In this document: one piece after another, positions 4,472 through 37,646 of the stretch | Layout of the letters: each line of letters begins with the position of its first letter | Position numbering within the stretch: position 1 is the first letter of the stretch | Assembly (NCBI GenBank): GCA_943372935.1 | Contig: CALSAP010000015.1 | Coordinates: forward strand, 1-64,000 | Direction: 5' to 3' | Origin: Synechococcus sp. UW140 | GTDB taxonomy: Bacteria > Cyanobacteriota > Cyanobacteriia > PCC-6307 > Cyanobiaceae | DNA: 64,000 bases | The notes under the pieces: model-generated | Databases searched by the model: none | What the model was told of the DNA's origin: nothing | The model's input: the letters and a program-made list of their open reading frames with translations, nothing else | Program-made: the position numbers and the translations under genes

Positions 4472-4567
4472 GGAACGCTCCGGCGCTGAATCAGCCAAAT
4501 GGACACCCTGGCTCCCATCCTGAAGGCCATGAGGCCAGGGCGCCCAAAACGATCGGGGGCCTGAGCC

Positions 4568-4583
4568 TGTGAGCGATGTCACA
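4568..4583. promoter_or_regulatory. Perfect CRP-type palindrome TGTGA-gcgatg-TCACA in the divergent crp / tpsA-1 intergenic region
   Basis: Seen directly: tgtgagcgatgtcaca at 4568-4583. It sits about 53 bp upstream of the tpsA-1 ATG (4637) and about 97 bp upstream of the divergent crp start (4471). It matches the established CRP/SyCRP consensus TGTGA-N6-TCACA. Confidence 0.5.
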
Positions 4584-4636
4584 GCAAAGGCGATCCTGCT
4601 TCGCTTCAATGACAAATCTAGGGCGAGCCTGGCTCC

Positions 4637-7600
4637 ATGACGCAGCCGCCACGATCAGCATGGCAGGCATCGACAGCATGCCGGAAAGCCACCCGGATCC
4701 TGGCGCTGGTGCTGGCTCCCCTGCTCGCCGGTCCGGCAGGGGCCCAGGTGTCGAGCGGTGGCCTGGGCACGCTGGTCAACGGCTCGGCGGAAAGCAGTTG
4801 CGGATCCGGCGCCTGTCGCGTGGAGGGCGGCACGGCCGCGGGCGCCAACCTGTTTCATCGCTTCCGGCAGTTCGACACCCGCGGTGGCATCAGCGGCGTC
4901 AGCATTGACAGCCGCGGGCTGGCCAATGTGATCGTGGGGGTGACCAACCCGGCTGGCACCTTCCTCAACCGGCCCCTGAGCCTGACCCAACAGGCCAACC
5001 TCTTCTGGCTCTCCCCTGGAGGCATCTGGGTGGGTCCCGGAGCAGACCTGGTGCGCGTGTCGAACCTGCTGCTCACCACGGCCACGGCGCTGCCGCTGGA
5101 GGGAGGTGCCACCTTCGACGCCCTGCGGACCACGGCGCAGGAAGCCTCCGGCTACCCGGGCGCGCCGTCAACGGGCTGGACCACCCTCACCTCCCTGGCC
5201 AGCCTGGCCGACCTGGGGCTGAAGGAACCCGGCCCGATCGTGCTGGCTGGCGGCCGGCTCAGGGTGGATCGGTCCCTGGTCCTGGATGGCGCCAACGGCG
5301 ACGTGCGGTCGCTGACGGGTGCGGGAAGCCGACTCGAAGCCGGCGAACGTGTGCGTCTCAGCGGTCGGGCCCTGGATCTCGACGCTCTCACAATCTCGGC
5401 GGGTGAGCCCGGGCAGCGGGGGCCGGTGATCCTCCAGACCACCAGCAGCGCAACCGGCGAGGACAGCGGGGCGATCCGCCTCTCGAACAGCCACCTGGAG
5501 GGGAGCAAGGTCATCCTCCGGGCCGGGGCGGTGACGGTGGCCGGCAGCACACTGGCGGCACCCAAGGGTGTGATCCGGCTGGAGAGCACCAACACCCGTG
5601 GGGACAACGGGATCCTGCTCCGCAACGCCCGTCTCGATGTAGGGGTGCACACCCTTGAGGATCTGCGCGCGGACGGATCGGTCACCGTCGAGAAGCAGGA
5701 TGGCGCCATCGTGCGCCAGTCGGCGCCCACACCTCTGATCCATCTGTTCTCCCAGGGAGATGTGCAGGTGGAGGCCGACTCCACCCTCACGGCCAGCCAG
5801 GATCTGGGGCCGATCCGGGCGGCGCTGCTCAAAGAGACGGGGGCGTCCCTGGCCGAGGGCGACGTGAAGCTTGCGGGCACCAGCGGCAACGTGGTGCTCG
5901 ATGCCGCTGGAAGGATCGGCGTGAGCCGCAGCAGGCTGGTGGCCGATGCCAGCGACAACCTGGCCGGCAACATCGCCCTGGTGGCCAGGGGCGGCGAGGG
6001 CAGAGGCGGCATCGGCATCGAGCGCAGCACGCTCTCGGCCAGCGGCGGCGCCGGATCGGGCGATATCCGGCTGAGCAGCAGCGACGGGATCACGATCACC
6101 GGCGCCACGCTGCGCACCGAGAGCAGCCACGGCCCGGGATCCCGTGAGGGCGGCATCGACTGGGCAACCGGCTATCCCTTTGCAGCCGGGGAGATCACTC
6201 TCAGCAATGATTCCCCGACCCGGCCCGTGCTGATCAACGGAAGCCGGCTCGAAGCCACCTACCACACCCGTGAGGGTGGGCTGCCGGTGGGTTTTCCCAA
6301 CCCAGACGATGGGGGCACGACGCAGGTTCCTTTCGTGGACCTTCACGATGATCGCGATCTGATCGAGCTCAGCTTCGACCAGACCCTGGATCCACCCAGG
6401 CTCGCCGGCATCTTTCCCCGCAGCACGGTGGCCATCATCAGCGCGGGTGGCATCTCCATCTCGAACGGGTCGACACTCGATGCCGGCAGCCATCCCGCAG
6501 GCAGACCCGACCTCCTCGAGGCCTTAGGAGGCCGGGTGCTGGTCGTGAACACCGGCACGGGGCTGGGAGCCGGCGCCCTGAGCATCACGGACTCCACGCT
6601 CCTGAGCCGGGTGGACAGCGCCAGCGGCATCCGCTTCCCCAACCCGGAATTCCCGGACTCTTCTGCGCAGGAGAGCCTGCCGATCGGCGAGCCGGGCAGC
6701 GTGCAGCTCTGGAGCGCCGGCTCCCTGCGCCTGAGCAACAGCTCCGTGGATGTGGGCGATGCCGGCCGGATCATCCGTGCCGGTGATGCCATCGGCCCAC
6801 CCCCTTCGCCCGTGCGAGACCCCTATGCGCCCCCCGGGAGCCCGGATCCCCCCACCGCCCAGGCCATCCTGGAGCGGCTCGCCCTTGACAGCCGGGGCGT
6901 GGGGGAGAGCGCGAGACAGACGGTGATCGTGGATCCCGATAACCGGGTGAAGGTGGTGACCACCGATCCTGATGGCGGAATCACGGTGCTGCGCGATCCG
7001 AGCCCTCAGCTCCTCACGACCTTGGTAGGGGAGGCGCGGGCAGCCCTGCTCCCCCGCGGTCTGCTGACACCCCCGCTGATCGTCGCGGCCGGCCCCGGCG
7101 TCGGCCCAGCCGACAGCAGCCGGATCATCACCCCGCTGCGGCGGGAGTCCACCGCGCCGGCTCTCGCCACCAGCAGCATCGTCTCCATGCCCATCTCGGT
7201 CTCAAGCCTGGAAGCGGCGGAGGCCAGCCGAGCTTTCGCGCACGCGGAGGAGCGCTCCCGGCAGGAGACCATCGCTGGCCTGGGATTGGAGGCAGGACAA
7301 GCAACGGCGCCACCCAACAGCGAACAACTGCAACGGCAGCTGCAGCGCATCAGTGCTGCCCTCTCCCAGCCCAGTCAGCACAGGGCGACCTCCTACCGGC
7401 CGGCCATCGTGTTGCTCAACCTCAGCCGACGCGCCGGGGCGGACGCCGCCCTGGATCTTCTCTACCTGCCCCCCAGCGGCCCGATGAAGGGGTGGCGCGT
7501 GGAGATGCCGGAAGCGCAGCTGAGGGGTTGGATCACCACCTTCCAGCGACAGCTCAGTCGCATGGAGCCGTTCGATGGCAGCAGCCAAGGTGCAGGTCGC

Positions 7601-8497
7601 CAGCTCTCCAACCATCTGTTCACCCCCCTGCTGCCGACGTTGCGGCACGACGGCATCACGGCCCTGCTGCTCAGCGTGGACCGGGGGCTGCAGGCCATTC
7701 CCTATGCGGCCCTGCCTCTGGACGAAGGACGCCCCCTGGGTGAGGCCTTCTCCCTCACCCTTACCCCTTCCCTGGGCCTCACGGCACTCGATGCGGCGTC
7801 GAACCCGTCCGCAGGCCGCATGTTGCTGGCCGGTACCAGCCGCTTCCGCAACGGGCTTGCCGATCTGCCCCTGGTCCGTCAGGAACTGGAAACGTTGGCA
7901 GCCGAGCATCCCGCCGACATGCTGCTCGACGACGCCTTCAGCAGCGCGGCCCTGCTGGACCAGGCCGGACGCCGCGAGTACCGGCGCGTGCACCTGGCCA
8001 GCCATGCCGAGTTCCGCCCTGGCCACCCCCCCATCGCCCGGCTCTTCACCGCCACAGGCGACGTGAACATCACCCAGCTGGGACGGCGCCTGCAGAGCGA
8101 TCCGGCCAGGGGGAACGTGGATCTGGTGAGCCTGAGTGCCTGCCGCACCGCCCTGGGTGACGAGAGCAGCGAACTGGGGCTGGTCGGCCTTGCCCTGCGC
8201 ACCGGCAGCCGCAGCGGCCTGGGCACCCTCTGGTTCGTGGACGATGCCGCCAGCGCCGCCTTCTTCGTGCACTTCTACCGCCAGCTGGCCCGGGGCCTGC
8301 CCAAGGACGAGGCTCTCCAGTCCACCCGAAGGGCGTTCCGAAGCGGGGAGATCCGGGTCAGGGGCGACAGCCTGGTGGGCCCCGATGGCAGCCACCTGAT
8401 CCAGGGCCTGTCTCCGGGCGACAGGGCGCGCTTCGCCGAGGGCCTGAGCCATCCCTACTTCTGGGCCGGGGTGGTTCTCTCCGGCTCACCCTGGTAG
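4637..8497 (+). CDS. TpsA-type secreted exoprotein: N-terminal TPS (hemagglutination-activity) domain, beta-helical repeats and a C-terminal CHAT (caspase-like) domain
   Basis: Signal-like N-terminus. TPS motifs: [21 protein letters not shown] and ANLFWLSPGGIWVG (the NPNGI-type motif). The C-terminal CHAT signature has His (VHLASHAEF) and Cys ([13 protein letters not shown]) plus GLVGLALRTGSRSGLGTLWFVDD. Confidence 0.9.
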   Translation: MTQPPRSAWQASTACRKATRILALVLAPLLAGPAGAQVSSGGLGTLVNGSAESSCGSGACRVEGGTAAGANLFHRFRQFDTRGGISGVSIDSRGLANVIVGVTNPAGTFLNRPLSLTQQANLFWLSPGGIWVGPGADLVRVSNLLLTTATALPLEGGATFDALRTTAQEASGYPGAPSTGWTTLTSLASLADLGLKEPGPIVLAGGRLRVDRSLVLDGANGDVRSLTGAGSRLEAGERVRLSGRALDLDALTISAGEPGQRGPVILQTTSSATGEDSGAIRLSNSHLEGSKVILRAGAVTVAGSTLAAPKGVIRLESTNTRGDNGILLRNARLDVGVHTLEDLRADGSVTVEKQDGAIVRQSAPTPLIHLFSQGDVQVEADSTLTASQDLGPIRAALLKETGASLAEGDVKLAGTSGNVVLDAAGRIGVSRSRLVADASDNLAGNIALVARGGEGRGGIGIERSTLSASGGAGSGDIRLSSSDGITITGATLRTESSHGPGSREGGIDWATGYPFAAGEITLSNDSPTRPVLINGSRLEATYHTREGGLPVGFPNPDDGGTTQVPFVDLHDDRDLIELSFDQTLDPPRLAGIFPRSTVAIISAGGISISNGSTLDAGSHPAGRPDLLEALGGRVLVVNTGTGLGAGALSITDSTLLSRVDSASGIRFPNPEFPDSSAQESLPIGEPGSVQLWSAGSLRLSNSSVDVGDAGRIIRAGDAIGPPPSPVRDPYAPPGSPDPPTAQAILERLALDSRGVGESARQTVIVDPDNRVKVVTTDPDGGITVLRDPSPQLLTTLVGEARAALLPRGLLTPPLIVAAGPGVGPADSSRIITPLRRESTAPALATSSIVSMPISVSSLEAAEASRAFAHAEERSRQETIAGLGLEAGQATAPPNSEQLQRQLQRISAALSQPSQHRATSYRPAIVLLNLSRRAGADAALDLLYLPPSGPMKGWRVEMPEAQLRGWITTFQRQLSRMEPFDGSSQGAGRQLSNHLFTPLLPTLRHDGITALLLSVDRGLQAIPYAALPLDEGRPLGEAFSLTLTPSLGLTALDAASNPSAGRMLLAGTSRFRNGLADLPLVRQELETLAAEHPADMLLDDAFSSAALLDQAGRREYRRVHLASHAEFRPGHPPIARLFTATGDVNITQLGRRLQSDPARGNVDLVSLSACRTALGDESSELGLVGLALRTGSRSGLGTLWFVDDAASAAFFVHFYRQLARGLPKDEALQSTRRAFRSGEIRVRGDSLVGPDGSHLIQGLSPGDRARFAEGLSHPYFWAGVVLSGSPW

Positions 8498-8553
8498 CGC
8501 TTCTCTCCTGCCGCGAGATCCGCAGTCCCCAACGTTCCGCTGCCCCAACCGCG

Positions 8554-9786
8554 ATGCCTTCCCCCCGCCGCCGCAGTTCACACCCCCGCACCGCCTGGCT
8601 CATTGGCTGCCTGGCCGTCCTTGTGCTCACCCTTCTGGGGGCCTGGACGGAACCCGCCCAGGCCCAGGACGAGTACTGCGTGAGAACCAATGCGCTCTGG
8701 ACGACACCGTGCACAACATCTGTACGGGTGGACAGCCTGATGGACACCTATTTCTGGTCGCCCAAGAGCCAACCAGCCTCCAACATAAGCATCAGCATTG
8801 GGCCCACTCGAAATGTGAAAGTGTCAAAGATGACACTTCACGGGCCAAGCACGATGCGCCTGAATGCAACAGGCTCATTGCAACGGGAAACACTGATCGG
8901 CAGTCTTGGCAATAACACCCTGACGGGTGCCGGCGGCGGCGACACCTTCGTGATCGGCAACGAAACATCCGTCACCAGGAACCTGGCAAACTGCTCCCCC
9001 ACGAGCATCAACGACTGCGTCTACCGCATCAGCCCTGGCCAGGAAACAGATACCGTGAACATCAGTGGATTTAATGGATCTCCCGATGGGGTCGATATCG
9101 TTTACATCAACAAATGTCTTCAGCTCGTGGCCACTGGGAATCCTGGAAAGGGTGGCGACGCCATCCGTTCAGCCGTCGCTTCCCCCGGGCTCGACAACCA
9201 GGGATTCCCCCAGCAGCCCATTCCCCTCACCGAACCCATGGCGGTGAACTGCCGCATGGGGGGAACTTCCCTGATCCGTTCGTTCACCGGTCAGCTATCC
9301 GATGGCAACGCAGGCCTCTTCGAATCGCTGTGCACAAAGCTAAGGAATATCCTTCGTTTCATCCACTTCAAGCTGACCGGTCGGCTTCCCCTCTATGTCG
9401 GCACACCGCGGATCGTTCAGCCAGCCAGCTTCGGGGGGGCGGAGGGCGATCGCATCGTCATCGAAGCGGAGGGCCTCCGCTTCAATGACGCTCCCCTCAC
9501 CCCTGAGCAGACGGAGGTGTTCGTGCAGGCGCGCAACCGAGACCCCGTCGCCGAGGGCAGGGCACTGATCTACCACCAGGAGATGGGCGTGCTGGCCGCC
9601 TATGGGACCGACCGGGCTGCCTACGGAAGCGAGGCCAATCCCGGCAGCGTGATCGCCCAGCTGGTGCGGCCGGGAGGACGGGCCCTGACGATTGACGCGG
9701 GAATCAGCCCGGACGCGCTCGACTGGGTGAGCCTGGTCCCGCCCGTTCCCCCCGGAGCGGGGGAATCCCCTTCTCCGGCCGGCTGA
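8554..9786 (+). CDS. Hypothetical secreted protein with an RTX-like GGxGxD calcium-binding motif (low-GC insert)
   Basis: Signal peptide (MPSPRRRSSHPRTAWLIGCLAVLVLTLLGAWTEPAQA). One hemolysin-type nonapeptide-like motif (GNNTLTGAGGGDTFVIG). Local GC is clearly lower than its surroundings (roughly 8700-9400). It sits between tpsA-1 and tpsB-1. Confidence 0.6.
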   Translation: MPSPRRRSSHPRTAWLIGCLAVLVLTLLGAWTEPAQAQDEYCVRTNALWTTPCTTSVRVDSLMDTYFWSPKSQPASNISISIGPTRNVKVSKMTLHGPSTMRLNATGSLQRETLIGSLGNNTLTGAGGGDTFVIGNETSVTRNLANCSPTSINDCVYRISPGQETDTVNISGFNGSPDGVDIVYINKCLQLVATGNPGKGGDAIRSAVASPGLDNQGFPQQPIPLTEPMAVNCRMGGTSLIRSFTGQLSDGNAGLFESLCTKLRNILRFIHFKLTGRLPLYVGTPRIVQPASFGGAEGDRIVIEAEGLRFNDAPLTPEQTEVFVQARNRDPVAEGRALIYHQEMGVLAAYGTDRAAYGSEANPGSVIAQLVRPGGRALTIDAGISPDALDWVSLVPPVPPGAGESPSPAG

Positions 9787-9792
9787 GCGCCG

Positions 9793-11496
9793 ATGCTGCT
9801 CCTGCTGGCCCAGCTCGTTGCCCCGCCCCTGCAGCCAGGGCCGGCTCGACTGCCCGGGCCGGCCACCGAAGAGCAGCGAGACGGACCCACACGGCCGCCG
9901 CAGCCCCCACGGCTGCTGCGCCTCCCCCCCGATGAGCCGGCCCCCGGGAGCGAACCACCGCCGGGCGGTCCCCTGGAACTGCCCCCCCCAGCGGGGTCCG
10001 AGGGCCTGCTTCCTCAGGTGCATGGGCTGAATCGCTACGACGCCAAGGAGCTGCACCGGATCCTGGCTCCCTGCGGCGCCATCACCGATGCGGCGACCAG
10101 GCTGCGGGCCTGCGCCGCCGCCCTCAGCAGCCGGCTGTCGGCGGACGGCTACGTCAACAGCAGGGTGTACCCCCTGGCTGATCCCCCCCCAGGCCGGCTG
10201 GAGGTGGTGGAAGGGAGGATCGCCGAGGTGCGGATCGAAAGTGACAGCCCGCGGCTGGCCCGTCGGCTGCGCCAGCTGCTGCTGCCCCTCAGGGGCACGG
10301 TGCTGCACCTGCCCAGCCTGGAGCGCACCGTGGCCCAGCTGCAACAGCTGGGCGGCGTGGGGCAACTGGAGGTGAGCCTCAACCGGCTGGGCAGTGACTC
10401 CACCCGTGCCGTGCTGGACGTGAGCGCCGAACCGGCCCCGCAGCCGTTAAGGGGCGAGATCTCCCTGCGCAACGATGGCAACAGCGGCAGCGGTCAGTTC
10501 CGTGCCCTGGCCACCCTGGTGAAGACCGATCTGGTCCTCGATGGCGACATCCTGCTCCTGTTCGGCGAGCTCGATGGCGACCAGAATCCCGACCTGGGCT
10601 ACAGCCTCGCGTCGCTCAGCTACAGCCTGCCCCTGGGTGATCGCCTGAGCCTCACCACAGCCTTCGGGGCCAGCCGCCGCAACCTGGTCGAAGCCCTGGG
10701 ACCTTCGGAAGACCTGTCGTTCCGACAGTTCCAGTTGCTAAGCCAGCTGGAGGTGACCCTGGCCTCATCGCTCACCAGGCGCTGGTATGGCTTCGCCGCT
10801 CTGAGCCTGAACCGAACCGACTCCTACCTGGCGGGCCAAGCCCTGCCACTGGTGACCGGAGCCGGTGCCGACGGGTGGGTTGGCAACGGCTTCCTGCGGG
10901 TCGGACTGGGGGCAGAGGGCGGGGGCGAGCGACTTCAGTGGGCCGCCAGCGTCTTTGGTTTGCAGGGGATCGCCTGCTTCAGCACCGCCGAACAGCTCCA
11001 GAACCAGGCCTTTTTCGGCATCCGGCCCGGTGAGGCTCGCGCTGCGGGAGGCCAGATCTACGGCCAGTGGCGCATCGGGCCACGCTGGCAGCTGGAGCTG
11101 CGCGCCGCCTTCCAGCAGGCCTTCACGCCCCTCACCAGCCCGATGGGCCTGAGCCTCGGCAGCGACAACGGGCTTCGGGGTCTCCCGGGCCAGGTGGTGA
11201 GTGGCGACAGCGGTCTCCTGGGAGCGCTCGAACTGAGCTGGACCGCCTGGCGCAAGCACCAGGCGGAGATCCAGCTGGTGCCGTTTCTCGGAGCGGGCCA
11301 GGTCCACACCCGTTTTCCCGAGGGCAGTTTCAGCGAAAGCATCGCCGCAGGTGGCCTGCTGGTGCGCTGGCTCCAGGGCCGCCACTGGCAGATGGAACTG
11401 GGCTGGGTCTCCCAGTTCGGCGATGGGTCCCGGTCGTACTGGAACGACTGGCTCCTGGGCAGCGGTCTCTACTCCAAGCTGAGTTACCGCTTCTGA
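9793..11496 (+). CDS. TpsB transporter (ShlB/FhaC/HecB family; POTRA plus Omp85-like barrel), partner of TpsA-1
   Basis: Polypeptide-transport POTRA region, a beta-barrel with alternating hydrophobic residues and a C-terminal ...SKLSYRF ending in aromatic F. It is paralogous to the ORFs at 34746 and 41797, and all three share the N-terminus M(S)LLLLAQLVAPPLQ.GP.RLP. Confidence 0.85.
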   Translation: MLLLLAQLVAPPLQPGPARLPGPATEEQRDGPTRPPQPPRLLRLPPDEPAPGSEPPPGGPLELPPPAGSEGLLPQVHGLNRYDAKELHRILAPCGAITDAATRLRACAAALSSRLSADGYVNSRVYPLADPPPGRLEVVEGRIAEVRIESDSPRLARRLRQLLLPLRGTVLHLPSLERTVAQLQQLGGVGQLEVSLNRLGSDSTRAVLDVSAEPAPQPLRGEISLRNDGNSGSGQFRALATLVKTDLVLDGDILLLFGELDGDQNPDLGYSLASLSYSLPLGDRLSLTTAFGASRRNLVEALGPSEDLSFRQFQLLSQLEVTLASSLTRRWYGFAALSLNRTDSYLAGQALPLVTGAGADGWVGNGFLRVGLGAEGGGERLQWAASVFGLQGIACFSTAEQLQNQAFFGIRPGEARAAGGQIYGQWRIGPRWQLELRAAFQQAFTPLTSPMGLSLGSDNGLRGLPGQVVSGDSGLLGALELSWTAWRKHQAEIQLVPFLGAGQVHTRFPEGSFSESIAAGGLLVRWLQGRHWQMELGWVSQFGDGSRSYWNDWLLGSGLYSKLSYRF

Positions 11497-13452
11497 ATGG
11501 CGCGTCGCCCCATGGCCGAGTCGACACCATGGGCGCTTCAGCCCCCGTTCCTCCGGCATTCGCCCTTCCGGCTTCCCCTGCGGCCATGGCTGCCCTACGC
11601 CTTCGCCGCACTGCTGCTGGTGGCCCTGCAGCGCGGTGGCGTCACCGAAACGGTGAACCTGCTGCTCCATGACATCGCCACCCAGCTGCGGCCGGCTCCC
11701 GATGGCGCCGCCACACCGGTGCGGGTGATCGGCATCAACGAGCCCGACCTCAGAAGGCTGGGCTGGCCGATCGACGACGACCTGCTGAGCGAGGCGATCC
11801 GCCGGCTGGAGCGCGCTGGCGTGCGTGCCATCGGCCTCGATCTGTTTCGAGACATCGGCGTGGGCAACAAGCCGGGTCGGCTACGGGCCCTGGCAGCCAG
11901 TGATCCGCGGCTGGTGTCGGTGTTCAGCGCCGTGGACGGCATCGGTGTGATCCCCGGAACGCCGCCGCAGCGCCGCGCCTACAACGATGTCCTGGTGGAC
12001 CCTGATGGGGTGGTACGCCGTGATCTGGTCCATGTGCGGGGCCAGGGGCCGCACATGGTGGCCCTTCCGATGCGGCTGCTGGAGGTGGCATCGGGCGACG
12101 ATCGGCTGCGCCGCGCCCTGGAGCGGGATCCTGCCGCAGTGCCCCACCTCGGCGAGAACTCCGGCGGGTACAGCCATTTCGATCATGGCGGCGTGCAGCG
12201 GATGCTGGCGTTCCAGCGACCCGGCAGCATCCCCACCTGGTCGCTCAGCCAGCTGCTGGCGGACGAGGTGCCCGAGGCCAGCCTGCGCAACGCGATCGTG
12301 CTGATCGGCAACGCGGCCCCCTCGCTGCGGGATGGTTTCCGGGTGCCCTTCGGAAGGATCGGGCAGGGTCAGGCGCTGCGCATGCCCGGCGTGGAGGTGC
12401 ATGCCCATCGGCTGGCGGCCCTGCTGGCCCTGGAGGCAGGACGGCCGATCGGCCTGCGTGTGGCGCCGGGCTGGCTGAACAGCCTGCTGCTGGTGGCTGG
12501 AATCGGCATCGGGATCGGCCTTGGGGAAGGTGTGAGAACACTGAGTCGCAGCCAGTTGGCCGTGGCGGTCGCAGGGGGGGTGGTGGTGCTGGCCAGCGGG
12601 GTGGCCCTGGCGCAGGGGTTCTGGTTCGATGCCGCCCTGCCGCTGGCCGGACTGGGCGTGATGGCCAGCGCGGCATGGATCCGCAGGGCCGGCGAACAGC
12701 AGCGCCAACGGGAACAGCTCCTGCAGCTGCTCAGGCAGACCACCTCGCCGGCGGTGGCCCGTGAACTGTGGCGACAGCGTGATGTGCTGCTCGAGGGCGG
12801 TCGCTTCCCCGGACGCACGACGGAGGTGACGGTGCTGTTCACCGACATCGAGCGCTTCACCGGCGTCGCCGAACTGCTGGACCCCCATACCCTGCTCAAC
12901 TGGCTGAACAGGGGCATGGCCGCGATGGTCGGCCCCGTGGAGGATGAGGGGGGCCTGGTGAACAAGTTCACCGGCGACGGCCTGCTGGCGGTGTTCGGAG
13001 CGCCGTTGGGCAGGGGACCTGCCGTCGATGCCGCAGCAGCGGTACGGGCCGCCAGTGGCATCCGCCGTGCGGTGATGGCGCTCAATGCAAACCTGGCAGA
13101 AGAAGGATTGCCGGCGATGCAGCTGCGGGTGGGGGTGCACAGCGGCCGTGTCCTGACCGGCTCGGTGGGCACCCCGAACCGGTGGGAATTCGGCGTGGTC
13201 GGCGACACGGTGAACTGCGCCGCCCGCATTGAAGCCCTGGACATGGGCTCCACCATTGCGCCGTTCTGCCGGGTGCTGATCTCAGACTCCACCCGCGCTC
13301 TGGTGGGGGAAACGGTTCAGGGACGCTGGTTCTGCTGGGGCAAAAGGGCGCTGTCGGGACGTTCCTCGGCGGTGGAGATCTGGGAGCTGATGGAGGGGCC
13401 TGAACCCGAGGCGCTGGAGGCTTCGAGCGGCTCGCAACGAACGGGGAGCTGA
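11497..13452 (+). CDS. CHASE2 extracellular sensor / class III adenylate-guanylate cyclase
   Basis: N-terminal periplasmic CHASE2-like region, TM helices, then the cyclase catalytic core (VLFTDIERFTGVAE...NKFTGDGLLAVFGAP...VGVHSGRVLTGSVGT...VGDTVNCAARIE). The ATG follows immediately after the tpsB-1 stop codon (TGAATG). Confidence 0.9.
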   Translation: MARRPMAESTPWALQPPFLRHSPFRLPLRPWLPYAFAALLLVALQRGGVTETVNLLLHDIATQLRPAPDGAATPVRVIGINEPDLRRLGWPIDDDLLSEAIRRLERAGVRAIGLDLFRDIGVGNKPGRLRALAASDPRLVSVFSAVDGIGVIPGTPPQRRAYNDVLVDPDGVVRRDLVHVRGQGPHMVALPMRLLEVASGDDRLRRALERDPAAVPHLGENSGGYSHFDHGGVQRMLAFQRPGSIPTWSLSQLLADEVPEASLRNAIVLIGNAAPSLRDGFRVPFGRIGQGQALRMPGVEVHAHRLAALLALEAGRPIGLRVAPGWLNSLLLVAGIGIGIGLGEGVRTLSRSQLAVAVAGGVVVLASGVALAQGFWFDAALPLAGLGVMASAAWIRRAGEQQRQREQLLQLLRQTTSPAVARELWRQRDVLLEGGRFPGRTTEVTVLFTDIERFTGVAELLDPHTLLNWLNRGMAAMVGPVEDEGGLVNKFTGDGLLAVFGAPLGRGPAVDAAAAVRAASGIRRAVMALNANLAEEGLPAMQLRVGVHSGRVLTGSVGTPNRWEFGVVGDTVNCAARIEALDMGSTIAPFCRVLISDSTRALVGETVQGRWFCWGKRALSGRSSAVEIWELMEGPEPEALEASSGSQRTGS

Positions 13453-14036
13453 GCCGGCAGACCCTCGGCCAGGTGCTGGAGGGAGAAGGCCCCCAGCAAT
13501 GGAGCGGTGGCCACGGACGTGCCGCAGGCCCTGGCCAGAATCCTCAACTGGTCCGTCACCTGTCGATCCTCCCCCCTCGGCGCGGTCGAGGGTGTCGGCG
13601 GCTCGAGCCAGGTTCGGGCCGGTGGCGCAGTGGCGCTCTCCATGTCGGCGCCGCAGAGGGGAAAGCTCTCCCACAGCAGTCCACGGGACACGGCAGGAAT
13701 GGTCAGCAGCCTCACCCCCGTGGGCCTGGCGGCGAGAGTCCACTCACCGATGAGGCCCAGCTTCACCACCAGTGGAGTGGGGCGGGGAGCGGTGCCCTCC
13801 AACAGGGCGATGGTGCTGCCGGGACCGGGTGCGAAGCGGCCGCTGCTCGGCACGAGGTGAGCCAGACGGCGTGACTCGCAAGGGTCGCGGCTGCCACCGG
13901 ACTCCCTGTTCATGGGAAAGGATTTCGTGCGATCCTTGGCGACGGCTGCTGGGATGGACAGGCCAGCAGAGAGATTCGCCAGCAGTCCGACCGCCAGCGC
14001 CAGGTAGATCGTTCGGGAAAGAGCGGCTGAGTCCAT
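13317..14036 (-). CDS. Small secreted protein, DUF928-like paralog family member (copy 1, degenerate)
   Basis: Paralogous to the ORFs at 28435..29220 and 36997..37653 (shared RLAHLVPSS, W.S..C and a C-terminal LPVRC). The family motif FPGRRVGGGTRGEC is degraded here to FPMNRESGGSRDPCE. A 3' extension past the family's normal stop overlaps the convergent cyclase by 136 nt. Confidence 0.5.
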   Translation of the reverse strand: MDSAALSRTIYLALAVGLLANLSAGLSIPAAVAKDRTKSFPMNRESGGSRDPCESRRLAHLVPSSGRFAPGPGSTIALLEGTAPRPTPLVVKLGLIGEWTLAARPTGVRLLTIPAVSRGLLWESFPLCGADMESATAPPARTWLEPPTPSTAPRGEDRQVTDQLRILARACGTSVATAPLLGAFSLQHLAEGLPAQLPVRCEPLEASSASGSGPSISSQISTAEERPDSALLPQQNQRP

Positions 14037-14111
14037 CGCAGCCGGTGCTAGGTGAAGAGACCATTATGCAGTTCTGATAGCCTCATTGGCCCCCAGCCGG
14101 TCACGGCATGT

Positions 14112-14127
14112 AGTGATCCTGATCACA
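14112..14127. promoter_or_regulatory. CRP-like palindrome AGTGA-tcctga-TCACA in the speA / DUF928-like divergent intergenic region
   Basis: Seen directly at 14112-14127; 9 of 10 half-site matches to TGTGA-N6-TCACA. It sits about 100 bp upstream of the speA ATG and about 75 bp from the divergent DUF928-like start. Confidence 0.35.
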
Positions 14128-14227
14128 GGATCGGGCGAAGTCATCGCAGCGGTCCTCATCGCCGCCCCTCGACAAGCCTGCCAGCTTCACAGGGAGGCGT
14201 GGGCAGCATCGCTAGATTCCATCGGCA

Positions 14228-16264
14228 ATGCACGTTCACTCACCGGGAAGCATGGCGCTCGCCGATCCGCCCAGCGTCACCCTTCCCGACGCTGCATCCC
14301 CTGGGCGATCCGAACCCTGGAGCGCCGCCGACGGTGCCGCCCTCTACGGCCTCGACCGCTGGGGTGACCCCTACTTCGGCGTGGGCGCCCGGGGCAACGT
14401 GATGGTCCAGCCCCGCGGCGAACGGGGTGGCTCGCTGGATCTGGTGGAGCTGGTGCGGGAGCTGCAGGGGCGCGATCTGTCCCTGCCTCTGCTGATCCGC
14501 TTCGACGACATCCTTGAGGACCGTCTGGAGCGGCTCCACGGCGCCTTTGAGCGGGCCATCACCCAGTACGGCTACGACGGCCGCTACCAGGGGGTGTTCC
14601 CGGTGAAATGCAACCAGCAGCGCCATGTGGTGGAGCAGCTGGTGGAGAGCGGCCGCCGCTGGCACTTCGGCCTGGAAGCGGGCAGCAAGGCCGAGCTGCT
14701 GATCGCCCTGTCCCTGCTCGACGACCCCGACGCCCTGCTGATCTGCAACGGCTACAAGGACCGCCGCTACATCGAGACGGCAATCCTGGCCCGGCGCCTG
14801 GGGCGCCAGCCGGTGGTGGTGATCGAGCAGGCCGATGAGGTGGATCGCATCATCGCCGCCAGCAGCGCCCTGGGCGGGGCCCCGTTCCTCGGCATCCGCG
14901 CCAAGCTCTCGGCCCGCAGCACCGGCCGCTGGGGCAGCTCGGTGGGCGAGCGGGCCAAGTTCGGCCTCTCGATCCCCGATGTGCTCACCACGGTGGAGCG
15001 GCTGCGGGAGGCCGGCCTGCTCGACGACCTGCGCCTGCTGCACTTCCACATCGGCAGCCAGATCAACGACATCGCCGTGCTCAAGGACGCCCTGCAGGAG
15101 GCGGGCCAGATCTATGCCGAGCTCACCCGCCTGGGGGCCCCGATGGGCTTCCTCGACGTGGGCGGCGGCCTGGGCATCGACTACGACGGCAGCCGCACCG
15201 CCACCGCCGCCTCCACCAACTACTCGCTGCAGAACTACGCCAACGACGTCGTCGCCACGATCCGGGAGTGCTGCGAGCCCCACGGCATCCGGCCGCCCAC
15301 GCTGGTGAGCGAGAGCGGCCGGGCGCTGGCCAGCCACTTCAGCGTGCTGGTGTTCGACGTGCTCGGGGCCGGCGGCCACGGCGAAACGCTGCCGCCGGCC
15401 GCGGAGGGGGAGGCGCTGATCCTGCGCAACCTGCGCGACACCCACATCCTGATCATGGCGATCGCCGCCGAGGGGGGCCTCGAGGGGGACGACGCCAGCG
15501 ATCGGGCGGTGGTGGAACGGCTCCAGGAGGCCTGGAACGATGCCCTCAAGTTCAAGGAGGACGCTCTCACCGCCTTCCGGCTCGGCTACCTGAGCCTGCC
15601 GGAGCGGGCCACGGCCGAGCGCCTCACCTGGGCGAGCTGCCAGGCGATCGCCCGCCAGCTCGAAGGCCTGCCCCCAGGCGCCGTGATCCCCCAGGAGCTG
15701 CAGGCCCTGCCGGCGGCGCTGGCCGGCACGTACTACGCCAACCTCTCGGTGTTCCGCTCGGCCCCGGACACCTGGGCGATCGACCAGCTGTTCCCGGTGT
15801 TGCCGATCCATCGGCTCGATGAACGGCCCACCCGGCTCGGCAGCTTCGCCGACCTCACCTGCGATTCCGACGGCAAGATCGCCCGCTTCATCGACCGGGG
15901 CCAGGTCAAGCCCCTGCTGGAACTCCACGGCCTGCGGCCGGGCGAGCCCTACTGGATCGGGCTGTTTCTCGGCGGCGCCTACCAGGAGGTGATGGGCAAC
16001 CTGCACAACCTGTTCGGCAGCACCAACGCCGTTCACATCCGGCTGGCGGCCGGGGGCGGCTACCGGGTGGACCACGTGGTGCGGGGCAACACCAACGCCG
16101 AGGTGCTCGAGGCGATGGAGCACGACCCAGCACTGCTGCTGGAGCGGCTCCGCCTGGCCAGCGAACAGGCGATCGGCCGGGGCGACCTGGCCATCAGCGA
16201 TGCCCGCCGCCTGATGGCCCACCTGCGGGCCAGCCTGGAGCAGACCACTTACCTGGAGGCGTGA
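14228..16264 (+). CDS. speA: Biosynthetic arginine decarboxylase
   Basis: 678 aa with the characteristic SpeA N-terminus (WGDPYF...VMVQP), a PLP-fold core (FPVKCNQQRHVVEQLV...) and full length. The long antisense ORF 14240..16222 is rejected. Confidence 0.95.
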   Translation: MHVHSPGSMALADPPSVTLPDAASPGRSEPWSAADGAALYGLDRWGDPYFGVGARGNVMVQPRGERGGSLDLVELVRELQGRDLSLPLLIRFDDILEDRLERLHGAFERAITQYGYDGRYQGVFPVKCNQQRHVVEQLVESGRRWHFGLEAGSKAELLIALSLLDDPDALLICNGYKDRRYIETAILARRLGRQPVVVIEQADEVDRIIAASSALGGAPFLGIRAKLSARSTGRWGSSVGERAKFGLSIPDVLTTVERLREAGLLDDLRLLHFHIGSQINDIAVLKDALQEAGQIYAELTRLGAPMGFLDVGGGLGIDYDGSRTATAASTNYSLQNYANDVVATIRECCEPHGIRPPTLVSESGRALASHFSVLVFDVLGAGGHGETLPPAAEGEALILRNLRDTHILIMAIAAEGGLEGDDASDRAVVERLQEAWNDALKFKEDALTAFRLGYLSLPERATAERLTWASCQAIARQLEGLPPGAVIPQELQALPAALAGTYYANLSVFRSAPDTWAIDQLFPVLPIHRLDERPTRLGSFADLTCDSDGKIARFIDRGQVKPLLELHGLRPGEPYWIGLFLGGAYQEVMGNLHNLFGSTNAVHIRLAAGGGYRVDHVVRGNTNAEVLEAMEHDPALLLERLRLASEQAIGRGDLAISDARRLMAHLRASLEQTTYLEA

Positions 16265-16266
16265 CC

Positions 16267-18147
16267 CTACCTGGAGGCCTGATCCGCGAGGGCGACGGTG
16301 AAGATCTCCACCTCCCCGAGACTCTTCACCGCCTGGGGTCCCAGGGAGCGGGCCGAGAGGCCGGGGTCGGCCGCGATCAGGCTGGCGGTCTGGGCGTCAC
16401 ACACCACCGCCGCGTCCACATTCCGCGTGGCCGATTCGAGCCGGGCCGACAGGTTCACCGTGTCGCCGATCACGGTGAACTCCATCCGCTGTGGGCTGCC
16501 GATCTGGCCCACCATCACCTGGCCACTGGCCAGGCCGATGCCGTTGTCGAGGCTGGCGATGTCCCGCCGCGCCCAGTCCTCGTTGAGGCCGGCCAGGGCC
16601 GCCCGCATGGCCAGGGCGCAGCGCACCGCCTGGCGGGCCTCCTCGGCCACTCCCCGGCTCACCGGTGAGCCGAACACCGCCATCACCGCATCGCCGATGA
16701 ATTTGTCAACGGTGCCGCCATGGGCCATCACCACCTCCACCATGGCGCCCAGATACTCGTTGAGCTGGCGCACGTGCAGCTCGCTCTGGCCTTCACCGCT
16801 GCGCTGCTTGGTGAGCACCGTGAAGCCCTTGATGTCGGTCATCAGCACGGTCACTTCCAGCAGGCGGCCGCGCAGGATGCCCTGGGCCGATTCCGGGTCG
16901 GAGAGGATCTCCGCCACCACCCCGGGGGCCACGTAGCGCTCGAAGGTGCGGCGCAGGCGCCGCCGCTCCTGCCCCTCCCGCAGGTAGGCATCCCCGCCGT
17001 AGAGCAGGCCCAGCAGCACCAGGCCCGAGGAGGGCGCCAACAGGGGCAGCCAGCGGTTGGCCTGCTGCAGCGCCACGGCGACGACGGCCCCCTGGAGGAC
17101 CAGCACCAGCACCACCAGGGCGAGGCGCCAGCGCAGGTCGGTCCAGTGGCGGGCCGCCGCCAGCACGAGCAGCAGCGGCAGCAGGGCCAGCAGGGCCCGG
17201 CCCGGCGCGCTGCGGGGCCAGGGCTGCAGCCCATCCCCCTGCAGCGAGTTGGCGGTGGCGGTGGCCAGCACCTCCAGTCCCGACAGGCGGCCGAAGGGGG
17301 TGGGGTAGCCGTCGGTCCCCTGGGCGACCACCGGGCCAAGCAGCACCAGGGCCCCCTTCACGTCCTGGCGCAGGGGATGGGTCTGCCAGCGCGCGGGGTC
17401 GAGCACCTCCCAGGCCGGCAGGCGCTGGAAGCTGCCCTCCGGGCCATAGAAATTGAGCGCGCTGGCCCGGTCGTCCTGGTGGCTCCGGTGGCCCCCCAGC
17501 CGCAGCAGGGTGGAGGAGAGGGCGCTGTGGCCCTCGGCGCCCCGGGCGGGAAGCACGCCGCTGGCGTAGGCCTCGGGGTGGCGGCTCGGCTCGCTGGAGG
17601 TGCCGGCGAGGATGTTGGTGAGCCCGAGGGAGCCGGTGCCGCCGATGGCCGCCAGGAAGCGCTCCGGCCGCACGAAGGTGAGGGCTCCCGCCCCCTGGGT
17701 GTCGTCGGATTCGAGCATCTCGGCCGCCAGGGCGACCCGGCCGGGGTAGCGCCGCAGCCGCAGCTCCAGGGCATCGTCATCGGCCGGCCCCTTGCCGCTG
17801 GGCCCCTCGAAGACCACATTCACGGCCACGGCCCTGGCACCGGCCTGCAGCAGCTTCTCCGCCACCATGCCGTAGGTGGCGCGGGGCCAGGGCAGGCTGC
17901 CGACGCCCCTGGCCCATTCCGGGATCCGGCCTTCCTCCTCGAACCAGTCCCCCTGCTGCAGGGTGGCGTCATCGACCGTGACCAGCACCACCTTCTCTGG
18001 CGGCCGGCGCGGGCCCCGCAGCAGCATCAACTGCTGCTCCACCCCCCGCTCCCAGACACGCATCCGGGGTCCCGGCCAGCCGGAACTGACCCCCACCCAG
18101 GCCAGCACGGCCACCACGAGGACCTTGAAGGTGCGGCGTCGCGCCAT
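16267..18147 (-). CDS. CHASE2 sensor / class III nucleotidyl cyclase (second copy)
   Basis: CHASE2-like N-terminal half, TM block, cyclase core (VLMTDIKGFTVL...DKFIGDAVMAVFGSP...IGLASGQVMVGQIGS...IGDTVNLSARLE). Convergent with speA. Confidence 0.9.
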   Translation of the reverse strand: MARRRTFKVLVVAVLAWVGVSSGWPGPRMRVWERGVEQQLMLLRGPRRPPEKVVLVTVDDATLQQGDWFEEEGRIPEWARGVGSLPWPRATYGMVAEKLLQAGARAVAVNVVFEGPSGKGPADDDALELRLRRYPGRVALAAEMLESDDTQGAGALTFVRPERFLAAIGGTGSLGLTNILAGTSSEPSRHPEAYASGVLPARGAEGHSALSSTLLRLGGHRSHQDDRASALNFYGPEGSFQRLPAWEVLDPARWQTHPLRQDVKGALVLLGPVVAQGTDGYPTPFGRLSGLEVLATATANSLQGDGLQPWPRSAPGRALLALLPLLLVLAAARHWTDLRWRLALVVLVLVLQGAVVAVALQQANRWLPLLAPSSGLVLLGLLYGGDAYLREGQERRRLRRTFERYVAPGVVAEILSDPESAQGILRGRLLEVTVLMTDIKGFTVLTKQRSGEGQSELHVRQLNEYLGAMVEVVMAHGGTVDKFIGDAVMAVFGSPVSRGVAEEARQAVRCALAMRAALAGLNEDWARRDIASLDNGIGLASGQVMVGQIGSPQRMEFTVIGDTVNLSARLESATRNVDAAVVCDAQTASLIAADPGLSARSLGPQAVKSLGEVEIFTVALADQASR

Positions 18148-18558
18148 CTCGAAGACCTCTCCCGTCGGCGCCGCTGTAGACGCTCAGCCGCAGGCCATCA
18201 TCGTGGCAGCTAGGGGCGAGCGCCTAGGACCTTGGAGCCTGTTGTACCTCGGAGCCTCAGGCCTGGGGCTGCCTGTGAACGAGGAGCGCTCCTCTCGAAG
18301 TGCTGCCCGTTGGTTCTGGCCGCTCAGGCCGTTGCCAAGGCTGCCCTGCACAGCTCGAGGATGTTTTGGGTGGTGGCCATTGGCACCCGCTCGCCATTCC
18401 CCTTCTCAAGGCCCCGCAACCGGAGGCGCTCCAGCCCTCGGGCTCCATTGATCTGGACTAAGCACGACTCCAGGACCGTCTTGAGGAGGACGTGGATCGC
18501 CTAGCCAGCCGCTGAGCGGAACTTGGGATCCAGCCGGCTGAATAGAACTCATTCTCTT

Positions 18559-19968
18559 TCATTGCCGAAGAAGATCTTCGATCAATGCGTTTCTCCGCTG
18601 AAGAATGTCTACGGCCGCCTGGCCATTCCCCACAATTTGCCTGAGTTGCCGAGCGCCGTCACTCAGGAGAGAGAAAGCAGGCCTGACCCACCCCTTTCCC
18701 GGAACAAGGGACACAATATCAATGACAGCGTTCACGGGATCTCCGCCTATATACTTAGAATAGGCCGAGAAAAGCTTTTCGCCAGCAACAATTGGTTTTA
18801 AGGCTGTTTGAAGGACTCTCAAGCTATTGCTTTGCGTGACAATCCCGAAGACATTCAAGGCTATATCTACATGAGAGGGCCTTAGAAACCGAAAACGATC
18901 AGCAATGACACCCCTAACCGTGCCTATGTCTGTAGCCTGATAGGCTTGAAAGCTGGACACTCTATCATTGAGGAAACCAATATTCGCAGCATCGGCAGTA
19001 TAGGATATCCTCCGCCCAAAGAAGTTGGGATGCTCAAAGAGATCAATGCGTGCCCCCCGCGGAAGATCAATTGACGAGTAATCGTCATTAAACCTGACTT
19101 GTCGTCGGCTTCCAAGTGTATCACTATGCGCAAGTCCCTGGAAGTTCGAATGCTGATAAAGGATAACTTCGTCGCTTCGTTGGCGGCGAACTCGCAGACT
19201 GCTTATGCTATCGTTCAGATATGAGGTTCTCCAGTTGGGGTCGCTCCAGTCAGCGCCAATACTGGCCTGGGAGTGGGAAACGACAGTGCTTCTTCCTTGG
19301 AAATTGGCATGCTCGAAGAACTCTACAACCAAATCACTACCGGCAGGGATGCGTATCGAAGTCGCGATGTCATTAAAATCGCCGCCAATGAATGAATAGT
19401 TGCCAATTCCGAATGTCTTTGAGCGGCCAGAATACGCCGCATGCTCAAAGAGAGTTACAGAAGCATTGAATTCGACTTGGACAGGCGAGCCATCAATCAA
19501 GAGAATTCCGGAATCATCCTCGCTGAACGCAGAGGCCGAAAGATCCGACATGCTTTTCGACATCACCAAAGACGCAAAAATCTCGCCTTCATCTCCAAGG
19601 CTATCAACAAGGTTGATTCTTGCGTCAATTGCGTGGCCAATCTCCTCGGCAAGGACATCCGCAATCTGCCATGTGGCAGAGCTATCAACGAAGTTGCCAT
19701 CAATGTAGATTGTATTGTCAGCTCTCGCGTAGGCAGCCGTTTCAAGTCCCGTAATATTATCAACCCTGACGACATTCAAGTCCAGGGCGTCTACCAAGCT
19801 TTCGTTTGCACTTATGGACGGCCCAACAAGCTCTTGAATCTTTGCGTAAGAGCCAACTCCAAAAACACTGTCGAATGAACTGATAGGCGTGGCTAGAAGA
19901 GCTGAATGAATCGATGCCTCTGCAAAGGCAATGCCATCAGAGAGATTACAAAAAGCAGGGGGAGCGCC
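18559..19968 (-). pseudogene. Low-GC gene for a protein with four beta/gamma-crystallin-type Greek-key repeats, 5' end interrupted by an ISAs1-family insertion
   Basis: There are four repeats of the type (L/V)(F/Y)EHxNFxG(R)S ... NDxxSSxxV (e.g. VEFFEHANFQGRST...LNDSISSLRV; VILYQHSNFQGLA...FNDDYSSIDL; IDLFEHPNFFGRRIS...LNDRVSSFQA). GC content is far below its surroundings. The first 45 codons of the annotated ORF (to 20103) are IS sequence; the native 5' end continues at 21236..21315 on the other side of the IS. Confidence 0.7.
19958..19968. repeat. 11-bp target-site duplication (left copy) gggggagcgcc
   Basis: The identical 11-mer recurs at 21236-21246, immediately outside the inverted repeats. 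Confidence 0.7.
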
Positions 19969-21235: not shown

Positions 21236-21246
21236 GGGGGAGCGCC
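21236..21246. repeat. 11-bp target-site duplication (right copy) gggggagcgcc
   Basis: Direct repeat of 19958-19968. Confidence 0.7.
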
Positions 21247-21315
21247 GAGAATAGAATCAAGGCAACTTGCACCCGCTAGCGCTGGGGATGCAGGCACGAA
21301 ACCTATCCCTTCCAT
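21236..21315 (-). pseudogene. Displaced native 5' end of the beta/gamma-crystallin-repeat gene (MEGIGFVPASPALAGASCLDSIL-GAPP...)
   Basis: Own translation of the minus strand from the ATG at about 21313-21315 runs in frame into the TSD (GAPP). Deleting the IS plus one TSD copy joins this exactly to AFCNLSDGIAFAEASIH... at 19957 and below. The low-GC character continues to about 21450. Confidence 0.5.
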
Positions 21316-21675
21316 TGTTCAGCAGGAAATTATCAATATCTTGCCAGCCGCCAAGACACCTAGCAGCCGGAAGAACATTTCTTAATACGTTGTCGTCCAA
21401 TATGCGATAGGCGCACAACTAGACGCTCGCACCGCTCAAATTCGGGTTTTCCATTGTCGGCTTGGGCTCGTGAGCTGAGCCCCTCCAACACAGCAGGATT
21501 GGTCACGGCATCGGGCAGCGCCGGCTGTCCTACGCCTCTCTCACTGAGGTCGGATCCAGCTCCGACACCCTGGCACAGCCGCTTTGATGCCACCGACTCG
21601 CATCGGCTGAGCAGAGTGGCGAGGCCGATCAGCTGTCGGCCACTCCATGCAGCCGGAACACAGTTCCCAACTGGA

Positions 21676-29121: not shown

Positions 29122-29156
29122 CGGAAGAGGCATGGGGGAACCGGCAACCTTTCTCT

Positions 29157-37641: not shown

Positions 37642-37646
37642 CGATG

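Follow-up and report, generated by a model that had tools for sequence, protein, structure and literature searches.

In the 64-kb stretch of Synechococcus sp. UW140 DNA analysed here (the window), from a freshwater picocyanobacterium of Cyanobium/Synechococcus type, a gene for a TpsB-type transporter, the outer-membrane pore of two-partner secretion (TPS), is followed without a single intervening nucleotide by a gene for a CHASE2 sensor nucleotide cyclase. We consider it probable that the region 4637-13452, which ends with these two genes, is one transcription unit controlled by cyclic AMP (cAMP) and a Crp-like factor, in which the cyclase would be made by translational re-initiation and its product would feed back on the unit through that factor. 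The gene order is tpsA(TPS-CHAT)-X-tpsB-cyclase, all on the plus strand, with gaps of 56, 6 and 0 nt:

4637-8497, plus strand: TpsA-type exoprotein (TPS-CHAT) with a signal peptide, a TPS-like N-terminus, a β-helix shaft and a C-terminal CHAT (caspase-like protease) domain
8554-9786, plus strand: protein X, secreted, Cys-containing, without a family, with one RTX-like GGxGxD stretch
9793-11496, plus strand: TpsB (ShlB/FhaC/CdiB-type) outer-membrane transporter, from Pfam ShlB, a CdiB profile match and an AlphaFold2 (AF2) model
11494-11499, plus strand: stop/start junction TGA|ATG (TGA 11494-11496, ATG 11497-11499), zero spacer, shared frame
11497-13452, plus strand: CHASE2 sensor with a class III nucleotide cyclase domain (Pfam CHASE2 147.8 bits, Guanylate_cyc 63.7 bits)

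According to the open reading frame (ORF) listing, 9793-11496 (567 aa) and 11497-13452 (651 aa) lie in a single frame and are parted by the stop codon alone; read directly, the sequence across the junction is ...tac cgc ttc TGA ATG gcg cgt.... An earlier interpretation made from this DNA alone (the sequence-only reading) had placed the tpsB-1 stop at 11494-11496 immediately before a cyclase ATG at 11497, and these coordinates are confirmed. It had also named a promoter/terminator pair between the genes as evidence that would speak for separate expression. A scan of 4000-14500 revealed no consensus promoter or terminator at the tpsB-cyclase junction, with counts at chance level. The RNA around the junction (11437-11556) folds no better than shuffled sequence (z = -0.18), and direct reading of the 20 nt 5′ of the cyclase ATG found no AGGA, GGAG or GAGG. 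The 0-nt spacer without a separate ribosome-binding site, together with spacers of 0-14 nt in relatives, is the spacing of a translationally coupled pair. We infer from these features that the four genes are co-transcribed and that translation is coupled at the tpsB-cyclase junction.

The sequence-only reading took the upstream gene for a TPS pore and the downstream gene for a CHASE2 cyclase. Both identifications stand, on the Pfam CHASE2 and Guanylate_cyc matches and on a ShlB match above its cut-off (PF03865 at 40.4 bits against 22.7). A profile built from 20 TpsB homologues matches CdiB (6wim, E = 8.9e-16); in that alignment GLRGLPG, the L6 motif, faces SVRGF, and the stretch SDNGLRGLPGQVxSGD is invariant in these homologues and aligns with CdiB SSVRGFKDQYISGN. 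The AF2 model (predicted local distance difference test, pLDDT, 68.7; 80-90 in the core) contains two alpha/beta POTRA-like units at residues 75-214 and 16 strands at residues 220-566, and its four best Protein Data Bank (PDB) matches are CdiB and FhaC (E <= 1.8e-17). Taken alone, the Pfam POTRA_2 match is sub-threshold (16.6 bits vs 24). The protein ends in ...LSYRF*, and the last residues of every homologue are YRF or close to it; a terminal Phe is typical of outer-membrane barrels. No match to TpsB was found on plasmids by tblastn, and of the best 120 matches listed for each of TpsB and the cyclase, none came from outside the picocyanobacteria.

The C-terminus also bears on the idea that TpsB and the cyclase form one fusion protein, the in-frame TGA between them being either read through or wrongly sequenced. 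Both ORFs do share a frame broken by one TGA. All TpsB homologues, however, end in the conserved ...(Y/F)RF outer-membrane-protein terminus, most related loci have the two genes in different frames or 2-14 nt apart, and an outer-membrane barrel joined to an inner-membrane receptor is topologically implausible, so that we give the fusion a negligible probability. On the conserved TpsB C-terminus and the differing frames in relatives, the read-through fusion was rejected.

The opposite end of TpsB has a peculiarity of its own. Its N-terminus, M(L)LLLLAQLVAPPLQPGPVRLPG, is near-invariant in all copies in the window (9793-9860, 34746-34815, 41797-41870) and in orthologues, lacks a basic n-region and precedes a long linker rich in Pro. 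As these features are odd for a signal peptide, this segment may have another role, for example as a plug helix or a targeting signal.

Of the catalytic residues of the cyclase (two metal Asp, the substrate Lys, the transition-state Asn and Arg), D450, K490, D494 and N573 never vary across 30 orthologues and R577 hardly does. The closest solved relatives of the catalytic domain include Cya2 (2w01), tied with a Cya2-derived fusion (6fht) at E = 1.4e-21. K490 aligns with Cya2 position E488, which is Glu in wild-type 2w01 and Lys in 6fht (E488K); wild-type Cya2 is a guanylate cyclase and the E488K variant an adenylate cyclase (PMC5995499). Because of Lys490 at this position, the window protein is predicted to be an adenylate cyclase with cAMP as its product. 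Hydrophobic stretches were recognised by eye at about residues 32-45 and 326-395, and the CHASE2 domain is predicted to lie in the periplasm.

Conservation of the junction was examined in 78 loci from a genome scan, searched with hidden Markov models (HMMs) built from the window proteins; loci from related picocyanobacteria are labelled L001 and so on. Cyclases nearest to the 11497-13452 protein were classed as cyc1 type and more distant ones as cyc3 type. TpsB lies immediately 5′ and on the same strand in 22 of the 23 cyc1-type cyclases with enough upstream sequence, a result in line with the earlier view of four co-oriented genes as one unit, and directly 5′ in 16 of 33 cyc3-type cyclases; a TpsB or CHAT gene occurs within 9 kb in 43 of the 46 loci with 5-kb flanks. 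Comparison of orthologous loci had been proposed as a check by the sequence-only reading, and the tight tpsB-cyclase juxtaposition proved to be kept in about 38 distinct related loci. Between the TpsB stop codon and the nearest canonical start downstream of it there are 0 nt in seven distinct loci, 2-3 nt in six, 5-10 nt (mostly 8) in 15, and 14 nt in one. The zero-gap form is written TGA|ATG in L009 and L010, TGA|GTG in L001 and L013, and TAA|GTG in L011 and L012; the zero gap is thus retained down to 63% protein identity despite changes of both stop (TGA/TAA) and start (ATG/GTG).

The start codons themselves also carry information. Translation of the cyclase cannot begin 5′ of 11497 because of the in-frame stop directly upstream, and ahead of the first hydrophobic helix the only candidates are ATG 11497 and ATG 11512, both of which are kept in L009, L010 and L002. 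An internal start at 11512 had been named earlier as the alternative; it is less likely, because in the sister clade (L001, L011, L012, L013) a GTG abutting the stop is the sole canonical start before the first membrane helix, which favours 11497. In a further sub-clade (L032, L051, L067, L078, L080, L082, L084), the stretch from the TpsB stop to the first membrane helix is devoid of ATG, GTG and TTG; it offers only a CTG that overlaps the stop (cTGa) or an ATC/ATT, and gene callers start the cyclase inside the helix and clip it. Independent initiation is hard to place in these loci because there is no canonical start; such junctions would be expected if initiation depended on the terminating ribosome, though they are not proof of it.

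These data speak to the view that the adjacency is without function, with a promoter for the cyclase inside tpsB, a start of its own (at 11497 or 11512), and a spacing that reflects genome compaction. Picocyanobacterial genomes are indeed compact, a second in-frame ATG is available at 11512, and close relatives do not have their cyc3 orthologues in the same orientation as TpsB. Yet the junction persists in the distinct loci counted above down to about 50% identity while neighbours change, and an independent start would have to be found where the stop-abutting GTG is the sole canonical one or where there is none. We regard independence of the two genes as unlikely.

The case for a cAMP/Crp-controlled unit rests on sequences 5′ of the operon and on two neighbouring genes, none of which (CRP boxes, divergent Crp-like gene, conserved convergent gene Y) the sequence-only reading mentioned:

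3801-4471, minus strand: Crp-like regulator with cyclic-nucleotide-monophosphate (cNMP)-binding and helix-turn-helix (HTH) domains, divergent from the operon (Pfam cNMP_binding E = 2.5e-16)
4568-4583, unstranded: perfect CRP-type palindrome TGTGAGCGATGTCACA, its centre 61.5 nt 5′ of the TPS-CHAT ATG
13317-14036, minus strand: gene Y, for a secreted protein of ~230 aa; it converges on the cyclase gene and shares the last 136 nt of the latter
14112-14127, unstranded: second CRP-type box AGTGATCCTGATCACA with 1 mismatch, 76-91 nt 5′ of the Y start

The box at 4568-4583, between the divergent Crp-like gene and the TPS-CHAT start, is the sole exact TGTGA-N6-TCACA match in the window, where ~0.017 are expected. 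Across 1.41 Mb of picocyanobacterial loci there are 25 exact boxes (19 distinct) vs 0.38 expected, an enrichment of about 65-fold, and the majority lie 5′ of TpsA or 5′ of Y. Their position follows the gene order: a box with at most one mismatch precedes TpsA in 13 of 16 distinct genes co-oriented with TpsB and the cyclase (9 of them exact), compared with 1 of 25 in other gene arrangements. Across loci the half-sites are conserved and the spacers vary. No CRP box was found 5′ of the cyclase gene itself. A box 5′ of tpsA and none 5′ of the cyclase argues against independent expression of the latter; a cyclase without a box fits a single Crp-dependent unit that carries its own cAMP synthase, and would therefore suggest a feedback loop. 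A TTCAAT hexamer at 4605-4610 would, speculatively, put the CRP box near -41.5.

The recognition helix of the Crp-like protein reads RETASR (RETxSR), in keeping with the RE..R pattern. In E. coli CRP the R-E-x-x-x-R pattern contacts TGTGA. The gene is intact in L002, L011-L013 and L016; its state in the window is considered below.

Gene Y accompanies the cyclase tail-to-tail in nearly all 78 loci, with orthologues 35-52% identical in L001, L003 and L004. Exact or one-mismatch boxes precede it in L001, L002, L009, L011-L013, L050, L066 and others, and the gene beyond Y varies. The window holds three copies, one per TPS-CHAT/TpsB system and all on the minus strand (13317-14036, 28438-29160, 36997-37653). 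No Pfam family matches Y at E <= 0.1. Profile comparison with DUF928 by hhalign gave a probability of 53% (E = 1.4e-4, 86 columns), and the alignment shares an N-terminal PxRRxGGG(T/S)RGxC...LVP (PxxRxGG(S/T)RGxC...L(V)P) motif. Y and DUF928 have the same genomic partners as well, and Y is possibly a divergent DUF928 protein. The model of Y, of moderate quality (pLDDT 61.6), is an Ig/FN3-like beta-sandwich whose structure matches are only generically Ig/FN3-like.

The first two genes of the unit are less conserved than the last two. The exoprotein has a clear C-terminal protease domain (Pfam CHAT, 161.8 bits). Its N-terminal profile matches the TPS adhesin EtpA (8vba, E = 9e-13), mostly via beta-helix repeats, and its ANLFWLSPGGI motif aligns only weakly to the NPNG region. 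Protein X matches no Pfam or NCBIfam family. A HemolysinCabind hit is one sub-threshold repeat match (E = 0.018), so that the earlier description of 8554-9786 as RTX-like was overstated. Only seven homologues of X were found; their alignment shows a signal peptide and conserved Cys residues, and a DTYFWSP motif and an IAQLV-type segment at the C-terminus are present too. No gene of the operon evolves faster: X is 78% identical in L009 and 74% in L010, where the cyclase is 93% and 91% identical, and 31-34% identical where the cyclase is at about 63%. TpsA also diverges faster (84%, then 50%) than TpsB and the cyclase, which diverge at equal rates (92/93% in L009, ~60/63% in L001 and L011).

We propose that transcription would begin just 3′ of the CRP box at 4568-4583 and that ribosomes ending tpsB at its TGA would most likely re-initiate on the abutting ATG 11497. 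Re-initiation is proposed because the two genes leave no space for a promoter or terminator and no Shine-Dalgarno-like sequence lies between them. The cyclase would then be made wherever and whenever the pore is made; the ‘stoichiometric’ co-expression claimed earlier goes too far and does not follow from coupling. TpsB, which has a TpsA-like substrate gene beside every copy, is predicted to export the CHAT-protease exoprotein across the outer membrane. The periplasmic CHASE2 domain would report a periplasmic or surface cue tied to the secretion system, for which transiting TpsA, a CHAT cleavage product and secreted Y (or X) are candidates. The cAMP produced would be read by the divergently encoded Crp-like regulator, which would bind the boxes 5′ of the operon and 5′ of Y and so close a feedback loop, whichever sign that feedback may have.

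Several observations weigh against this proposal. The cyc1-type cyclase of L042 is the lone one with TpsB at a distance (1.9 kb), and three loci (L014, L062, L066) have spacers of 74-151 nt; these few loci also lend some support to independent expression of the cyclase. In ‘type B’ loci the cyc3 orthologue is joined to a channel gene instead and TpsB is divergent; elsewhere, then, cyclases do without this junction. The TPS domain of the exoprotein is divergent as well (Pfam TPS 24.1 bits, below the 33.5 cut-off; TIGR01901 also sub-threshold). Finally, the Crp-like gene is frameshifted in the window and has decayed differently in its closest relatives L009, L010 and L001. The frameshift lies near a G7 run (3938-3944) and puts the cNMP-binding and HTH parts into separate frames: tblastn with the intact L002 orthologue aligned residues 6-181 in frame -2 (3932-4459) and residues 169-225 in frame -1 (3801-3971). 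The gene may be a true pseudogene, or the homopolymer run may have been misread. Because the adjoining gene is frameshifted, the feedback loop may be broken in the window, or it may run via another Crp paralogue.

The long spacer of L014 (9760-9910) is a ~150-nt A+T-rich repetitive insert (accccctttaa...) between TpsB and the cyclase, and may be a small mobile element.

A different division of labour between the two proteins would give TpsB mainly the task of a co-receptor or transducer in the outer membrane, serving the cyclase as NsrA serves CyaK, and make the operon primarily a trans-envelope signalling device. CHASE2 genes elsewhere are encoded just 3′ of an envelope partner, an outer-membrane FecR protein gene in Campylobacterota (PMC9239204) and mtxA, which precedes a CHASE2 cyclase, in magnetotactic bacteria (PMC4439547). 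In Sinorhizobium meliloti the CHASE2 cyclase CyaK depends on the outer-membrane protein NsrA to perceive its signal (PMC7529298), and the shared evolutionary rate of TpsB and the cyclase points the same way. The protein nevertheless bears all hallmarks of TpsB, every copy has a TpsA-like gene beside it, and no FecR domain was detected in it (ShlB-1) by a Pfam scan. A co-receptor role would not exclude export and would be compatible with the proposed unit; as the main function of TpsB it seems rather improbable to us.

The protease and the cyclase could also be thought of as an anti-phage or programmed-cell-death system of Pycsar or caspase type, with an alarm nucleotide made by the cyclase and the CHAT protease as effector. 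In favour are matches of the cyclase domain to PADLOC PycC models (best E = 1.3e-23), the occurrence of CHAT/caspase-like proteases in bacterial conflict systems, some of them fused to CHASE2 (PMC8195603), and the fast evolution of TpsA and X. The PycC match, however, is generic class III cyclase homology, and the enzyme is a membrane receptor with an extracytoplasmic sensor and the purine-type Lys. The CHAT domain sits on a secreted TPS-type protein with a signal peptide and should therefore act outside the cytoplasm; the adjoining cNMP-binder is a Crp-type transcription factor and not a transmembrane (TM) or TIR effector; and defence models match none of the other proteins of the locus. A defence function is thus very improbable. 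Membership of the Pycsar class, which pairs a cytosolic PycC cyclase with a cNMP-binding TM or TIR effector, was rejected, as the homology is that of cyclases in general, the cyclase is a CHASE2 receptor and the adjoining cNMP-binder is no such effector.

Besides the operon, the window carries two more CHASE2 cyclases, two more TPS-CHAT systems and some further genes:

16267-18147, minus strand: third CHASE2 cyclase, cyc2, with no TpsB or Y adjoining; it ends 2 nt from an arginine decarboxylase gene
18559-20103, minus strand: beta/gamma-crystallin / inhibitor I36-like protein, within a low-G+C region
25048-26529, plus strand: cNMP-binding MscS-like channel gene, directly 5′ of cyc3
26529-28481, plus strand: paralogous CHASE2 cyclase cyc3, whose ATG overlaps the channel gene stop by 1 nt (TGATG, 26527-26531)
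28438-29160, minus strand: Y2, part of the second system, which follows cyc3
29601-34646, minus strand: TPS-CHAT-2 of the second system
34746-36479, plus strand: TpsB-2 of the second system
36997-43491: third system, made up of Y3 (36997-37653, minus strand), CHAT-3 (37647-41609, minus strand) and TpsB-3 (41797-43491, plus strand)
46304-48199, minus strand: glutaminase-STAS-cNMP protein, the third cNMP-binder beside the MscS-like channel and the Crp-like factor

The channel gene and cyc3 are a second tightly joined pair of envelope protein and cyclase. The third system has no adjacent cyclase in the window, but the syntenic TpsB gene in L004 and its relatives is followed by one; in L038 and L073 a TpsB gene and the cyc2 orthologue meet tail-to-tail. 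Three cNMP-binding proteins are encoded within 45 kb of the three cyclases, and the region looks like a cyclic-nucleotide signalling island. At 18000-22000 the G+C content is 0.54-0.62 vs ~0.69 elsewhere, and this part may be foreign DNA.

On cyanobacterial plasmids, a CHAT and/or filamentous-haemagglutinin-N-terminal (FHA-N, TPS) gene lies within ~10 kb in 9 of the 11 CHASE2 loci examined; DUF928 adjoins CHASE2 in seven and ShlB is annotated in one. CHASE2 and CHAT are fused in one protein in five plasmid loci, and the others are AAA_35 or histidine kinase fusions. Because the outputs of the plasmid CHASE2 proteins vary, CHASE2 and not the cyclase is the constant partner of the TPS/CHAT genes. 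This linkage of CHASE2 to CHAT, TPS and DUF928 genes across the phylum, to the point of CHAT fusion, also argues against a fortuitous adjacency in the window.

More tentatively, cyanobacterial CHASE2 may be a dedicated monitor of the two-partner-secreted CHAT protease system, wired in picocyanobacteria through cAMP and a Crp-like factor into a self-regulating surface-protease circuit; we rate this a possibility well short of probable. CHASE2 would in that case read TpsB/TpsA transit, a CHAT cleavage product or the DUF928-like Y. The extracytoplasmic sensor domain CHASE2 is widespread and, according to the literature, without known ligands (PMC10581220), and such a role would name concrete ligand candidates for the whole sensor family. 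The locus and its ~80 relatives give a fixed set of candidate partners (TpsB, TPS-CHAT, X, Y), and with cAMP as predicted output, the Crp-like factor as receptor and the CRP boxes as targets, CHASE2 sensing becomes testable in a picocyanobacterium. The genes concerned encode a secreted caspase-like protease system that is uncharacterised and of which an abundant freshwater phototroph carries three copies within 40 kb; if the circuit exists, it might serve cell-cell or cell-death signalling.

Classical TPS operons (FhaB/FhaC, CdiBAI, EtpBAC, HMW1ABC) co-encode TpsB and a beta-helical TpsA with a TPS domain, to which the TpsA-type exoprotein with its TPS-like N-terminus would correspond here. 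In the window, the passenger ends in a CHAT protease, the order is tpsA-X-tpsB-cyclase and the TPS domain is divergent. Additional genes are common in TPS operons, and the accessory genes listed in a review of these systems include no nucleotide cyclase or sensor (PMC5422565), so that the sensor cyclase is a new kind of TPS accessory gene compared with those described. The sequence-only reading called the arrangement unusual. This holds in comparison with described TPS operons but not within picocyanobacteria, where the arrangement is the rule, nor for CHASE2 sensors, which are commonly encoded beside an envelope partner gene.

The cyanobacterial CHASE2/DUF928/CHAT/ShlB/FHA-N clusters, known from annotation (Planktothrix p1, Nostoc flagelliforme, Picosynechococcus PCC 7003, Gloeothece PCC 7424, Nostoc C052), link the same families as the window. 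They differ in the output of CHASE2, which is CHAT, AAA_35 or a histidine kinase and not a cyclase, and in their regulators, a sigma-70/DUF1822 pair or a response regulator instead of Crp; TPS and CHAT frequently belong to different proteins there, and no direct TpsB-to-CHASE2 junction was seen. In the literature searched, we found no paper linking CHASE2 with CHAT, two-partner secretion, ShlB or DUF928. The enzyme itself resembles Cya2 of Synechocystis PCC 6803 in its architecture of CHASE2, membrane helices and class III cyclase, and both have Gly at the second specificity position; Cya2, however, has Glu at the base-recognising position and makes cGMP, whereas Lys occupies that position in the window protein, in each of the 30 aligned orthologues and in the E488K variant, and no TpsB link is reported for Cya2.

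In Campylobacterota, Burkholderiales and magnetotactic bacteria, the envelope gene stands, as here, directly 5′ of the CHASE2 sensor gene, and often overlaps it; the partner there is a FecR, TPR or Ig-like protein and not TpsB, and there is no secreted CHAT exoprotein. FecR domains were found in the proteobacterial CHASE2 partners L087 (Shinella, rhizobial-type), L088 and L089, and in L088 and L089 the FecR-domain gene overlaps the downstream CHASE2 gene by 1-4 nt. A search for S. meliloti cyaK/nsrA on pSymB with the CHASE2 region gave matches only in Shinella and Burkholderiales, this region being too diverged.

To our knowledge, Sinorhizobium is the sole CHASE2 case with both a named signal and an outer-membrane partner. 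In its NsrA-CyaK/CyaD1/CyaD2-Clr system, inner-membrane CHASE2 adenylate cyclases need an outer-membrane beta-barrel for an external (protein) signal, and their cAMP acts through the Crp-like Clr (PMC7529298, PMC13001267, PMC10463352). Both systems pair a CHASE2 cyclase with an outer-membrane protein and a Crp-family regulator, in the window at the level of genes: a Crp-family receptor gene with cognate boxes is present here, in frameshifted form. In place of the FecR-domain partner of the rhizobial type (Shinella, L087) there is TpsB, an Omp85-type protein with two POTRA units, a putative cognate TpsA-CHAT and no FecR domain. The locus follows a known logic, in which a CHASE2 cyclase has an envelope partner encoded beside it and a Crp-like factor as its reader; its TpsB partner, secreted CHAT protease and putatively autoregulatory CRP box were not found described in the literature searched. 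A further difference from the NsrA system is that the cyclase lies inside the proposed operon controlled by the CRP box, which would make the loop autoregulatory.

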